Assembly: GCA_963796685.1 (NCBI GenBank)
Contig: CAWCMR010000009.1
Location: 1-64,000 of the forward strand
From: an uncultured delta proteobacterium
Lineage (GTDB): Bacteria > Myxococcota_A > Polyangia > Fen-1088
DNA length: 64,000 nucleotides
Direction of reading: 5' to 3'
Below are positions 3,535 to 64,000 of this stretch, piece after piece. The notes under the pieces are model-generated. The model was not told the DNA's origin, did not search any database, and worked only from the letters and a program-made list of their open reading frames with translations. The position numbers were made by a program, and so were the translations under genes. The stretch's first letter is position 1. Each line of letters opens with the position of its first letter.

Positions 3535-3876
3535 ATGATCTATATCCTGGACAATGGGGAGCCGTACAGCAACCACACGCTGTACTTCGTCGAGGCGCCC
3601 GACGACTTCGGCGCTTGGTTCAACGAGGTCTACCGGCCGTGGGTCGAGGGCGCGGAGTACCGTCCGCTGATGATCGTCGGGACCACGAACGCCCTGGCGT
3701 GGCGCCCGCGGCCACCCTACACACCACGTCCGGTCGAGGCGCTCGACCTGCCCATCGAAGATCACCCGATGCGCGAGTTCTCGACCATGCCCGTGGCCAA
3801 GTTCCTGAAGTGCGGGGCTGTCATTCACGAGCGGGACGGCGGGCCGCGCCCGCGCTACCGTCTGGAGGTCACATGA
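3535..3876 (+). CDS. hypothetical protein
   Basis: ATG after purine-rich RBS; ATGA overlap with next gene. Confidence 0.6.
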   Translation: MIYILDNGEPYSNHTLYFVEAPDDFGAWFNEVYRPWVEGAEYRPLMIVGTTNALAWRPRPPYTPRPVEALDLPIEDHPMREFSTMPVAKFLKCGAVIHERDGGPRPRYRLEVT

Positions 3877-4373
3877 ACGACGAGGCGCACCTACGAGCCC
3901 AGATCCAAAGAGACCGCCCGCTAGGCGGAGGAAGAGTCGACGACAGGCCGGAGGTGGCGAAGCTGCTCGCCGCCGTCAAGGAGGCTCTCCCCGAGCTGGA
4001 GAAGTTGCGCGACAAGTGCGCGGCGCGCGTCGACGAGGACGCTGTTTACCGCTTCTACCACCAGTCGAACAAGCTGTACGGACGCTGCCAGATCCACACG
4101 GAGGACATCGTCGCCAAGCTGCGATCACTCGCGCCTGATCCGCGCGTTACACTTGACCCGTACTTCGAGGAGATCGTCCGAGACGGTAAGCAGGAATGGG
4201 ACAACTCGCACAACGAGGAGTGGACCAAGCACACACGTCCGATCTTGGAGGCGTTCTTTCACGCGCGCTATTTCCTCGACGTGCTGATCGCCTACGCGCA
4301 CGAGCTGGACGAGCCCCCTAGCCTCATGGGGTACGGTTGGGCGGCGATCTTGACCCTGTACGGGCTTCGCTAG
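3873..4373 (+). CDS. hypothetical protein
   Basis: GGAGG RBS, coupled start, operon context. Confidence 0.7.
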   Translation: MNDEAHLRAQIQRDRPLGGGRVDDRPEVAKLLAAVKEALPELEKLRDKCAARVDEDAVYRFYHQSNKLYGRCQIHTEDIVAKLRSLAPDPRVTLDPYFEEIVRDGKQEWDNSHNEEWTKHTRPILEAFFHARYFLDVLIAYAHELDEPPSLMGYGWAAILTLYGLR

Positions 4374-4382
4374 GAGGGCACA

Positions 4383-5249
4383 ATGGGCAAGTCGCACAAC
4401 CTCACCGCCTTCTCCACTGCACCGTCGACCCTGCGCGAGTGCCTCACCCAGGGTCTCGGCCCGTACCGCAGCTTGTCCAGGCGTGGCGACATGACTGTCC
4501 CGCACGCGAGGCACCTGATCGAGACCTACCCCGCTCTCTACAAGCACGCGGACTCTCCTGCCGTCGCCGCTTCGCCAGCGTTCGCCCGCGACGGGTTCGG
4601 GTGTGGTGACGGCTGGTTCGGCATCATCGACCGCCTCTCGACGAAGCTGGCCGAGGATCCGTACCTGGTCGTGGTCCAGGTCAAGGAGAAGATGGGGGAG
4701 TTGCGGGTCTATCTCGATCGCGTCGCCGGCGCGCCGGAGCCCGACCCGGCGCTTGCCGCACGGCTCGGTGCCGCGCGCACCGCCGCCCGCGAGGCGTCCC
4801 TCCGCACCTGCGAGCTCTGCGGCGCGCCTGGCAAGCTGGAGGAGACGAGCCGGCACTGGCTTTTCGTACGCTGCAAATCTTGTGGCTGGCTTGACGATAT
4901 GGCGGAAGCGTGTAGACGCCTCGAAGCACTCGTCAAGGGTGCGAAGAAGAGCGCCTTCGTTCGATCCATCGGCCGCGTGGCGGCGGCCAAATGCCACATC
5001 TGCCAGCACCTTGGTGTAGGCGCGAGGCACCAGCCGAGAGAGGTCAGAAGGAGGTTTCCTTCTATCCCCTGGAAGAAGCTGGACACCTGGCGCTGGATTG
5101 ACAGCATCGAGCCCGCGGAGCGTGCTCGCGCCAAGGGCAAGATCCGCACGGGCAAGCAGTTCGAGGCCATGATCCTCAAAGTGCCCCCGGCAGAGCTGTG
5201 GCGGTTCATCAAGGACGAAAGCCCCAAGATCGCGGAGGCGCTGCGGTGA
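4383..5249 (+). CDS. phage-type CxxC protein fused to degenerate DUF86/HepT-like domain
   Basis: GDGW…QVKEKMGELRVY…CELCG phage-type motif; C-terminal LDDM…FPSIPW…LWRFIKDE resembles DUF86. Confidence 0.6.
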   Translation: MGKSHNLTAFSTAPSTLRECLTQGLGPYRSLSRRGDMTVPHARHLIETYPALYKHADSPAVAASPAFARDGFGCGDGWFGIIDRLSTKLAEDPYLVVVQVKEKMGELRVYLDRVAGAPEPDPALAARLGAARTAAREASLRTCELCGAPGKLEETSRHWLFVRCKSCGWLDDMAEACRRLEALVKGAKKSAFVRSIGRVAAAKCHICQHLGVGARHQPREVRRRFPSIPWKKLDTWRWIDSIEPAERARAKGKIRTGKQFEAMILKVPPAELWRFIKDESPKIAEALR

Positions 5250-61792: not shown

Positions 61793-61801
61793 GAGGGCAC
61801 A

Positions 61802-62668
61802 ATGGGCAAGTCGCACAACCTCACCGCCTTCTCCACTGCACCGTCGACCCTGCGCGAGTGCCTCACCCAGGGTCTCGGCCCGTACCGCAGCTTGTCCAGG
61901 CGTGGCGACATGACTGTCCCGCACGCGAGGCACCTGATCGAGACCTACCCCGCTCTCTACAAGCACGCGGACTCTCCTGCCGTCGCCGCTTCGCCAGCGT
62001 TCGCCCGCGACGGGTTCGGGTGTGGTGACGGCTGGTTCGGCATCATCGACCGCCTCTCGACGAAGCTGGCCGAGGATCCGTACCTGGTCGTGGTCCAGGT
62101 CAAGGAGAAGATGGGGGAGTTGCGGGTCTATCTCGATCGCGTCGCCGGCGCGCCGGAGCCCGACCCGGCGCTTGCCGCACGGCTCGGTGCCGCGCGCACC
62201 GCCGCCCGCGAGGCGTCCCTCCGCACCTGCGAGCTCTGCGGCGCGCCTGGCAAGCTGGAGGAGACGAGCCGGCACTGGCTTTTCGTACGCTGCAAATCTT
62301 GTGGCTGGCTTGACGATATGGCGGAAGCGTGTAGACGCCTCGAAGCACTCGTCAAGGGTGCGAAGAAGAGCGCCTTCGTTCGATCCATCGGCCGCGTGGC
62401 GGCGGCCAAATGCCACATCTGCCAGCACCTTGGTGTAGGCGCGAGGCACCAGCCGAGAGAGGTCAGAAGGAGGTTTCCTTCTATCCCCTGGAAGAAGCTG
62501 GACACCTGGCGCTGGATTGACAGCATCGAGCCCGCGGAGCGTGCTCGCGCCAAGGGCAAGATCCGCACGGGCAAGCAGTTCGAGGCCATGATCCTCAAAG
62601 TGCCCCCGGCAGAGCTGTGGCGGTTCATCAAGGACGAAAGCCCCAAGATCGCGGAGGCGCTGCGGTGA
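61802..62668 (+). CDS. copy of 4383-5249
   Basis: identical. Confidence 0.6.
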   Translation: MGKSHNLTAFSTAPSTLRECLTQGLGPYRSLSRRGDMTVPHARHLIETYPALYKHADSPAVAASPAFARDGFGCGDGWFGIIDRLSTKLAEDPYLVVVQVKEKMGELRVYLDRVAGAPEPDPALAARLGAARTAAREASLRTCELCGAPGKLEETSRHWLFVRCKSCGWLDDMAEACRRLEALVKGAKKSAFVRSIGRVAAAKCHICQHLGVGARHQPREVRRRFPSIPWKKLDTWRWIDSIEPAERARAKGKIRTGKQFEAMILKVPPAELWRFIKDESPKIAEALR

Positions 62669-63750
62669 AAAGCAAGTTTGTTTTTACCGAAAAGAACGGC
62701 ACCTGGTCGGCACACGATTCGAACGTGCCCGGCGTCTATGGCCTCGGGCCGACACGCGAGGCCGCCGAGGCCGACTTGCGCGAGGCTCTGGCCCCGCTTA
62801 CTGAGCACGATGCTCGCCAGGCCGCCGAAGACGCGGAAGACATCCGCCTCGCCGACGAGAGCCGCGCCGAGATACGCGCAGGCGGCGTCATGCTCTCGCA
62901 AACTGACGTGCTCAAACGGTACAGCCTCGCGTCTGTGAAGGTCGGCATCGTGTCCGACATCCACGGCGACATCGTCGCTCTCGACCTTGCACTCGGCCAT
63001 CTTCGCCGCATGGGCTGCGCTCTGATCCTCTGCCCCGGCGACCTGCTCGACATCGAGCCTTTCAGCGAGGAGGTCGTTCTGCGAATCAAGGCCGAGGGCG
63101 TGACCTGCATCCGCGGCAACCACGAGCGCTGGGCGATCGAGCGGCGCCGGCGGCGGCCGGACCTGCGCAAGTTCGGTGCCCCACCCCTGGTCGAGCTGCC
63201 CGACCTGGTCAGTAGCGGCGTCGAGCTGTCGCGTGAGGCCCTGGCCTGGATCGCCGCCCTGCCCTCATCTTGGTCAGCCGACCTGGCGGGCGTGCGCGTT
63301 GCGATGTGGCACGCGCGGCCAGGCTCCGACATGGAGGGGATTCGAGCCGACTCCACCGGGCTAGCTTTGCGGCGACGGTTGCTCGATGATGCACGGGCGG
63401 ATGTCCTGGTGGTCGGGCACACGCACGAGGCCTTTGAGTTGAGAGCGGGCAAACGCCGGATCTTGAACCCCGGCGCATGCTGCTCGAAGACCTACGCTTT
63501 CAAGCAATCGGGTGCTTCGGTGGAGCCTGCGGGCTATCGGCCGGCGACCTTCGGCGTGCTTGAACTGCCGTCGAAAAGATTCACCGTTCTCTGCGCGCTT
63601 GATGGCAGGGAGCTTGGAGATCTGGAAGATATTCGCATTGCCGAGAGTCGCCTGGCCGCCATTGACGCCGGCCTCGTGAAAACTATTCCGCTGGACGAAG
63701 TAATGCGGAAACTTGGAATTGGGCAGTCGAGAAAGACCCGGCGTAGATAA
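62665..63750 (+). CDS. copy of the HicB/metallophosphoesterase fusion
   Basis: identical to 5246-6331. Confidence 0.8.
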
Positions 63751-64000
63751 CGGAGAATTCCCAAGACGGTGCAAATCACGGTCTATTTCGCCGCCATCAT
63801 CGCGCCTGGTCTCACGTGCGCCTCTTCTATCAATCATCGTCGTGTTCGCGCGGCAACATTCGGACGTGCGTAGCACCGGCCACAAGCTCTACGGCCCCAC
63901 CGGCATCGGCGTGCTTTATGGCAAGCAGCGCCTGCTGGAGGCCATGCCGCCCTGGCAGGGCGGTGGCGACATGATCATGTCCGTGACCTTCGAGCGGACC

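Follow-up and report, generated by a model that had tools for sequence, protein, structure and literature searches.

The first 64 kb of contig C9 (424,923 bp) in a metagenome assembly from an uncultured soil Myxococcota, the whole stretch analysed here and called the window below, contain the beginning of an array of nearly identical insertion sequence (IS) copies. Judged by its sequence, the element belongs to the IS91 family, of which it is a new, ISCR-like member. All copies end on the right at exactly the same base, next to the tetranucleotide GGCC, while their left ends are ragged, and the DNA carried on the left side includes genes of the suf operon. This anatomy is probably best explained by one-ended rolling-circle transposition that operates with almost no fixed terminator. 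The assembly comprises 7.31 Mb in 26 contigs and is 88.6% complete, with 6.5% contamination.

Thirteen copies with a common right end

A whole-genome BLAST search and a motif scan found 13 copies of the element on C9, all on the plus strand and together spanning 131 kb. Six of them, and the start of a seventh (unit 7), lie in the window, and six more right ends follow that of unit 7. The original prediction had described six co-oriented right ends, each followed by GGCC, at window positions 9286, 17463, 32548, 36977, 44133 and 47559; all six bases are exact, and the array has proved larger, with the right ends of the remaining copies at contig positions 70056 (unit 7), 79385, 103526, 114001, 119844, 126335 and 130898. 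The terminus of every C9 copy reads ...CGAATCGCCTAT and is followed by GGCC, and in the six in-window copies at least 44 terminal bases are common (...GGCAGGGTTCTCAGACGCTCAAAAACCCCCTTCGAATCGCCTAT). Genome-wide, the end motif is followed by GGCC in 15 of 15 cases (13 on C9 and 2 on C10). Given a GGCC frequency of 0.0099 per base on the contig, finding it at 13 of 13 ends by chance has a probability of about 1e-26; for the co-orientation of all 13 copies, the two-sided p value is 2.4e-4. No copy with more than 94% identity was found outside C9 by whole-genome BLAST.

The left limits are quite different. Self-BLAST of the window placed them, in copy-1 coordinates, at 7532 (copy 3), 7472 (copy 4), 7129 (copy 6), 6650 (copy 5), 6306 (the copy 2 alignment) and 3765 (unit 7). 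The in-window copies are 99.1–100% identical to copy 1 and have zero further bases in common with it leftward of each limit. The left limits first proposed were reproduced in this way, except that copy 2 in fact reaches to about 13379 in the window, 6306 being the breakpoint of copies 1 and 9. The copies past unit 7 have their left limits at 6920, 6305, 7531, 6452, 9158 (a 133-bp solo right end, c12f) and 6764. Aligning all genomic copies and tabulating their breakpoints, the check suggested at the outset, therefore gives 11 distinct left limits among 13 copies, of which 6305/6 and 7531/2 recur at independent sites. Microhomology at the left junctions amounts to 0–1 nt. The pentamer GCCGA, found in the donors ahead of both recurrent left ends, was considered as a terminator motif and rejected as a coincidence, being present at 0 of 3 breakpoints in the same-genus genomes G004 and G001.

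No consistent flank duplication was seen at the 12 copies compared, the sole exception being copy 6, where GGCCT stands on both sides (45397–45401 and 47560–47564), either by chance or by duplication. The invariant end sits 168 bp past the transposase stop codon. At the other side of the core, interspecies DNA homology sets in 40 bp ahead of the start codon, at about copy-1 position 7572/3, and continues through to the right end; homology to C5:42952 on the suf side stops at 7532/7533. No terminal inverted repeat joins both termini among the 25 listed of 28 inverted pairs. Both haplotypes described below have an imperfect palindrome some 65–100 nt away from the right end, with folding no better than that of shuffled sequences. 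A search of the window against Rfam at the gathering threshold and a close-match search of a plasmid collection gave no match, and the GC skew of C9 gave no replication direction.

An ISCR-like transposase

In the 501-residue transposase encoded by each complete copy, Pfam recognizes the domains Y2_Tnp (1.2e-21, residues 171–401) and Zn_Tnp_IS91 (2.3e-15, residues 37–126). The top NCBIfam model is ISCR_clade_Ia (E 1.4e-86, model positions 18–506 of 509), whose score of 291 bits is far under the 925-bit cutoff of that narrow model; the IS91 equivalog NF033538 (transpos_IS91) scores 88.6 bits, below its curated cutoff of 125. The nearest plasmid-borne genes, annotated as 'IS91 family transposase', are 36% identical across 98% of the length. 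When the protein was aligned with one plasmid-borne relative and with a sister transposase encoded on contig C5, the HUH motif and Y335 (in CKYILRPP) were invariant and no second Tyr was present at ±4 of Y335. ISCR enzymes have a single catalytic Tyr. The original assignment to the IS91/ISCR family is thus borne out by both Pfam domains and by the best NCBIfam model, whereas the accompanying term 'Helitron-like' can be kept as an analogy only, as Pfam shows no helicase domain in the 501-residue protein. The element contains no orf121-like gene.

Only one of the 12 transposase genes is disrupted; the other 11 are intact and differ by 0–1 amino acid, which argues that the element is probably active. 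A transposase gene had been expected past position 64000; it does start at contig position 65032, in unit 7, but is cut at 66356 by a 3,346-bp insertion. This insertion (C9:66357–69702) encodes a DUF5372 protein, a 330-residue open reading frame (ORF) without a Pfam family and a 686-residue large serine recombinase.

A scan of species-representative genomes revealed 41 related loci, all in metagenome-assembled genomes labelled as uncultured delta proteobacterium, Myxococcales, Myxococcota or Proteobacteria. Copies from the same genus show about 89% (G004) and 81–85% (G001) DNA identity. Upstream of 7572/3 the sequence varies between genomes and is common to the copies within each, to differing extents: one copy in G004 shares 201 bp and two share at least 996 bp, and the shared stretches in G001 are 316 and 503 bp. 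The pairing of an invariant right end with ragged left ends that bear cargo is therefore typical of the lineage as such and not specific to this locus. Similar clusters of the element are present in relatives, including the G001 (9 contigs) and G004 assemblies. The tetranucleotide next to the right end is characteristic of each lineage, being GGCC in 3 of 3 cases in G001, GGTC in 4 of 4 in G004 and GCAC in 5 of 5 of the sister type; all of these fit the pattern G-N-N-C, like the targets GTTC and GTCC given in the available text of PMC13181058.

Origin of the suf cargo

The cargo had been recognized as suf genes from the start, an identification upheld by Pfam and by 92–93% identity to two sufB-C-D-S-U-T operons resident in the same genome (C5:1476–6984 and C4:5125–10825). 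The sufT-type gene of the cargo is complete, and its 413-bp deletion takes out the 3' end of sufS and the 5' end of sufU. Contig C4, 11 kb long, repeats the first 7.4 kb of C5 (C5:1–7378) with 98.6% identity, which suggests strain heterogeneity or a duplicated locus. On both contigs, a sister IS91-family element, whose transposase has 71% amino acid identity to the C9-type enzyme, lies about 110 bp past the sufT stop codon, and five more suf-bearing sister derivatives, some of them internally deleted, occur in the same orientation within the next 45 kb.

The downstream neighbour of sufT in G001 and G010 maps here to C5:83565–86278, where it is preceded by a diverged 94-bp fragment of the sufT 3' end. 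About 76 kb of inserted DNA (C5:6985–83464) separates the intact sufT from this native downstream neighbour, and in none of 4 relatives is sufT followed by the DNA that forms the right flank of the C5-type element here. The insertion begins with the IS, a position suited to capture of suf by leftward read-through. The insertion as a whole resembles an island integrated at the sufT 3' end that supplied its own replacement gene end.

In copy 2, the suf cargo runs about 1.1 kb further to the left than in copy 1. Window positions 13379–14482, which hold the 3' part of sufD and the 5' part of sufS, match C5:4024–5128 collinearly at 92% identity; copy 2 is therefore a 4.1-kb unit with its left limit at about 13379. 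Within the cargo, 421 bp of sufS have been replaced by a 153-bp segment, designated X, that has crisp boundaries and a right edge adjoining a GGCC native to sufS. Segment X and positions 9163–9175 have the 13-mer TCGAGAAAGACCC in common, and a search for the source of the segment found none. The possibility that segment X is an old solo right end was rejected, with a global alignment z score of 0.48 and 150 of 500 shuffles scoring as well.

Order of events

Single-nucleotide polymorphisms (SNPs) in the common part of the copies define two haplotypes, distinguished mainly by a cluster at 9207–9242, and four or five subgroups, among them A1 (copies 1 and 2), A2 (copies 3, 8, 9 and 11, with left limits at 7532, 6920, 6305 and 6452), B1 (copies 4, 5 and 6, with limits at 7472, 6650 and 7129) and B2 (unit 7 and copies 10 and 13, with limits at 3765, 7531 and 6764). 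Long and short forms are present in every subgroup of more than two members, and every copy extending left of 6710 has the same 413-bp deletion. It follows that the common ancestor already bore long suf cargo. The cargo of copy 2, the longest, looks ancestral, and most left ends appear as differing stops inside pre-existing cargo, which is the opposite of a growth series.

On the sequence evidence, there are only two demonstrable layers of capture, suf and then the flank of copy 1. The second layer is the one that the original prediction had seen in unit 7: the copy 1 flank at 3765–6305 reappears as positions 61184–63724 of unit 7, 2,541 bp with 100% identity, and copy 1 with its flank remains 100% identical to unit 7 across the 2,817 bp that lie in the window. 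In G001, G011, G063 and G080 homology is uninterrupted across the equivalent of position 3765, so the context of copy 1 is original and unit 7 is derived. Unit 7 is also mosaic, with a left part identical to the haplotype-A copy 1 and a right end of haplotype B. The stepwise growth that had been read from the nested left ends thus stands as far as these two layers go, but the nested series provides no chronology, as the SNP sublineages mix different lengths.

The flank of copy 1 belongs to a conserved block typical of conjugative elements (window 1550–6331), which encodes a DUF3560 and methyltransferase protein, a metallophosphatase and two further ORFs, one hypothetical and the other Lar-like. 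The block is syntenic in G001 and G043, and two IS91-family elements lie just downstream of the metallophosphatase gene in G001.

Junctions in public contigs

Public contigs were compared over window positions 32553–42318, using the best 4 of 20 runs matching part of 32553–41496; these are soil metagenomes from one study and may not be the source sample. The left junction of copy 4 was bridged in 4 of 4 runs, by pieces extending from 34576 or 34836 to 35204, that is, 42 bases into the element. This was one of three junctions covered by the comparison; no listed piece ran across the right junction of copy 4 or the left junction of copy 5, coverage being partial. In contigs of 2 of the 4 runs, the left flank of copy 5 runs into non-element sequence resembling the continuation found in G012, and this alternative continuation does not occur in the present genome. 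The depth of the element was about 5–12 times that of the flanks in the four runs. Loose contig ends past the right end of the element have continuations that are not beside any copy in the present genome: one is the start of another repeated element, present also at C6:277601 and C8:666039, and a second, seen as one contig end of 29 bases, matches the reverse complement of window position ~6161, inside the upstream flank of copy 1. These results point to additional insertions or rearrangements within the population but do not validate the pairing of flanks.

Mechanism and alternatives

Elements of the IS91, IS801, IS1294 and ISCR types start transposition at oriIS, which lies past the 3' end of the transposase gene beside a specific tetranucleotide, and stop at terIS on the upstream side (PMC13181058; related accounts in PMC5737581 and PMC13393415), and when termination fails, upstream DNA of variable length is carried along (PMC13181058, PMC5737581). 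According to the available text of PMC13181058, IS91-type elements use a target tetranucleotide, produce no target duplication and have a functional bottom-strand single-stranded circle, and one-ended events account for 1–14% of IS91 and IS1294 transposition naturally and for about 50% when IS91 tnpA is expressed without orf121. An invariant 3'-side end beside a fixed tetranucleotide, together with a ragged 5' side, is the anatomy of one-ended rolling-circle transposition. We infer from it the direction of transfer, the nick site and the nature of the left ends as termination points. The HUH transposase would nick at the fixed right end, ...GCCTAT next to GGCC, and a strand would be peeled off leftward through the transposase gene; with little or no working terminator, transfer would halt at varied points in the upstream DNA. 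An ancestral copy located just downstream of sufT would have captured the 3' part of the suf operon by read-through. Later moves from cargo-bearing donors would then have halted inside the cargo (6452, 6650, 6764, 6920, 7129 and 7472), twice at the IS boundary (7531/2), twice at 6305/6 and once 129 bp from the right end, whereas the transfer that gave rise to unit 7 would have halted beyond the cargo, in the flank of copy 1. Stops at the IS boundary account for 2 of the 13 copies, which would make termination far leakier than the 1–14% of IS91 and IS1294 and nearer to the roughly 50% seen without orf121.

Several observations weigh against this reading. The right flank does not continue the homologue of the left flank in any of the five copies tested, namely copies 3, 4, 5, 11 and c12f, for which homologues came from one paralogue (copy 3), G010 (copy 4), G012 and G010 (copy 5), two paralogues (copy 11) and G077, G051 and G049 (c12f). 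In every case the similarity to the left flank breaks off no more than 15 bp from the junction, the native sequence there does not begin with GGCC, and a search of relatives and paralogues found no clean empty site; a search within the genus with the right flank of copy 4 produced nothing useful. A simple insertion 5' of a pre-existing GGCC thus appears to be contradicted for copy 5 and c12f, barring later rearrangement. The homologue of the native continuation of copy 5 lies about 6 kb downstream, inverted. The Pfam coordinates of the frames abutting the junctions were uninformative, several junctions falling at gene ends or between genes. In a comparison across copies, no native continuation was found after the right end of any other copy, so that flank exchange between surviving copies does not explain the mismatch. 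Loss or rearrangement of the target at the left joint, later deletions and inversions in an IS-rich region, or mis-pairing by the assembler may each be responsible; the flank pairings around these near-identical repeats are those given by a metagenome assembly. The tetranucleotide, moreover, never varies within a lineage (27 of 27 cases), unlike published IS91 insertion sites, and GGCC may either derive from the target or be carried by the element. No termination signal was found at the ends: their folding is no better than that of shuffled versions (z 0.46 to −0.69), no covarying hairpin was detected (RNAalifold −8.0 kcal/mol with an unfavourable covariation term, from seven references, one of them mis-specified), and the left ends have no common motif and adjoin GGCC in 0 of 10 cases.

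These features could be accommodated if the element made a precise right joint next to GGCC and an unspecific left joint coupled to loss or rearrangement of the target, with no sequence-specific terminator and with local, strand-constrained movement. Movement of that kind, to which the co-orientation of all 13 copies within 131 kb and the similar clusters in relatives would point, may be coupled to single-stranded DNA as the target, at a replication fork or on a transferred strand. The absence of contiguity in all five flank pairs, the 421-bp loss at segment X beside a native GGCC and the right end joined to its own inverted flank in a run contig all speak for such a scheme, which we regard as unlikely; in a variant of it, GGCC may travel with the element and not belong to the target. 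Alternatively, full-length, cargo-bearing copies were inserted and their left sides were trimmed afterwards by deletion, inversion or repeat recombination. The same non-contiguous flanks, the inverted neighbour of copy 5 some 6 kb away, the mosaic haplotype of unit 7 and segment X with its loss of adjacent DNA are all in keeping with such erosion. Random deletions, however, should strike both sides, and the right ends are all perfect; two left limits recur at independent sites, junction microhomology is minimal, native continuations never turn up after another copy's right end, and the raggedness is one-sided in G001 and G004 as well. We therefore judge later trimming to be improbable as the source of the left ends.

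A more mundane possibility is that the assembler threaded through near-identical repeats, pairing flanks from different loci or strains, and that the array and its clustering are in part artificial. The contamination of the assembly, the near-duplication of the C5 start in C4, the flank pairs that are never contiguous and the allele in two runs in which the left flank of copy 5 enters non-element sequence are all compatible with it. Yet the left junction of copy 4 was bridged in every run, each left limit is a distinct junction of a kind that mis-threading cannot make, the independent G001 and G004 assemblies show the same clusters and ragged left ends, and mis-pairing alone would not put all 13 copies in one orientation, which makes an artefact of this extent highly improbable. 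The notion with the slenderest chance of being correct is the one originally advanced, in which the shortest copies are the oldest, each generation adds a piece of flank and the nested series is chronological. Two capture layers do exist, but growth at different sites would have added different flanks, whereas all suf-bearing copies hold the same cargo, those reaching left of 6710 with the same deletion; subgroups A2, B1 and B2 each run from long to short, and the longest suf cargo, in copy 2, is collinear with the operon. One-ended rolling-circle transposition with very leaky termination thus probably remains the best account of the array.

Comparison with known systems

The element resembles the ISCR group (ISCR1, ISCR2, ISCR8 and ISCR28) in its best NCBIfam model, its HUH motif and single conserved Tyr, a defined oriIS-type end downstream of the gene with ill-defined or truncated upstream ends, the capture of upstream DNA and the occurrence of multiple co-oriented copies within mobile regions. 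It differs in its divergence (about 36% identity to plasmid-borne relatives, and 291 against the 925 bits of the clade Ia cutoff), in its host, an uncultured Myxococcota, in carrying housekeeping suf genes and not resistance genes, in showing no link to integrons and in the strict invariance of the flanking GGCC. With IS91, IS801, IS1294 and IS1294b it has in common a HUH transposase with an N-terminal zinc-binding domain, the absence of terminal inverted repeats, a G-N-N-C tetranucleotide beside the oriIS-type end, the apparent lack of a consistent target duplication and variable upstream read-through (PMC13181058, PMC5737581). Unlike that group, it falls under the IS91 equivalog cutoff (88.6 versus 125 bits) and lacks orf121, its stops are not located by a target-like tetranucleotide (0 of 10), its flanks are non-contiguous, and the IS boundary is the stopping point in only two of the 13 copies, compared with a read-through of 1–14% reported for IS91 and IS1294. 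A fixed initiating end, a leaky terminating end and the capture of gene fragments by terminator bypass are also typical of Helitrons such as Helraiser (PMC4778049); the present element has no Rep–helicase fusion and a bacterial host, and the resemblance is one of mechanism and not of membership. In the literature on IS91-family and rolling-circle elements in myxobacteria and on one-ended transposition of ISCR elements, we found no description of this lineage, and the only myxobacterial ISCR context encountered there was that of ISCR28 with sul4, in the available text of PMC12772301.

Features and surroundings of the array

The coordinates of the element, its cargo and its copies are collected in Table 1.

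Table 1. Features of the array, in window positions unless contig positions are indicated
Feature	Position	Strand	Remarks
Copy 1 core IS, 1,755 bp	7532..9286	+	Shortest complete form, as in copies 3 and 10
Transposase gene, 501 aa, HUH motif H188-F-H190, conserved Tyr335	7613..9118	+	
Right-end (oriIS-type) region, terminus ...CTTCGAATCGCCTAT	9158..9286	+	
GGCC adjoining the right end	9287..9290, likewise at 17464, 32549, 36978, 44134, 47560	+	
G-rich spacer between the sufT stop codon and the IS core	7467..7531	+	~92% to C5:42952-43044 up to 7532
suf cargo: sufS fragment, 413-bp internal deletion, sufT (FeS_assembly_P)	6459..7466	+	Pfam
Segment X, 153 bp replacing 421 bp of sufS	6306..6458	+	Copies 1 and 9 begin at its left edge
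Copy 1 left flank: hypothetical ORF, Lar-like ORF, metallophosphatase gene	3765..6305	+	Pfam
Copy 2, longest suf cargo (sufD 3' part, sufS 5' part, X, sufS fragment, sufT), then IS	13379..17463	+	
Copy 3, core IS alone, left limit 7532	30794..32548	+	Self-BLAST
Copy 4, left limit 7472	35163..36977	+	Self-BLAST; left junction bridged in 4/4 runs
Copy 5, left limit 6650	41497..44133	+	Self-BLAST
Copy 6, left limit 7129	45402..47559	+	Self-BLAST
Sister (C5-type) IS91-family remnant: transposase C-terminal fragment and right end ...CTTCGATTCGCTTAT, then GCAC	49110..49454	+	
Unit 7, left limit 3765	61184..64000, continuing to contig 70056	+	
Solo right-end fragment c12f: same 129 bases and GGCC	Contig 126207-126339	+	

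Some of the neighbouring DNA is of interest in its own right. Two CRISPR-like arrays with the 37-nt repeat GTCGCGCGGTCCTTCGGGGCCGCGCGTGGATTGAAAC and a period of about 71–72 nt occupy C9:89586–91966 and 95488–100538; copy 9 starts 7 bases past the last CRISPR-like repeat, and the array is thus cut by the element. The left flank of c12f (C9:126100–126206) contains an element of about 95 nt that is conserved at 85–95% in other genera, in at least six genomes, where it runs into a tRNA-like 3' arm; Rfam and ARAGORN gave no match for this flank here, and its identity as the transfer-messenger RNA of the genome was ruled out, the gene for that RNA being located at C11:286538–286888. To the left of copy 5, positions 39595–41494 encode a pair of AbiEi-like antitoxin and AbiEii-like toxin, the toxin gene ending at the junction. 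The stretch 50000–58000 of the window has a G+C content of 0.55–0.57, against 0.61–0.66 elsewhere, and includes, on the minus strand, a 784-residue ORF with a pAdhesive_15 domain (53079–55433). A 410-residue minus-strand ORF at 55977–57209 contains an internal tandem repeat (56035–56535) with a period of about 126 bp and 79% identity.

Significance

The kind of element described here and its mechanism of capture are already known, and it is the particulars that seem worth following: the host, the capture of suf, a GGCC that never varies, the local clustering of co-oriented copies and flanks that are not contiguous. ISCR elements have been blamed for the mobilization of many resistance genes. 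Their own mobility is described as presumed from similarity to IS91, and not measured, in the available text of PMC13393415 and PMC9376610, and how they terminate is treated as not settled in that of PMC5737581. The locus on C9 records at least 13 recent events that took place in nature, with 11 stopping points, a known donor sequence and apparently active copies. It could provide data on how ISCR-type transfer comes to a stop and at which positions, supply a harmless and probably active transposase for laboratory experiments, and document the pick-up of chromosomal housekeeping genes (suf) at the edge of an integrated island. If real, the systematic mismatch of the flanks would bear on how one-ended transposition events are resolved.

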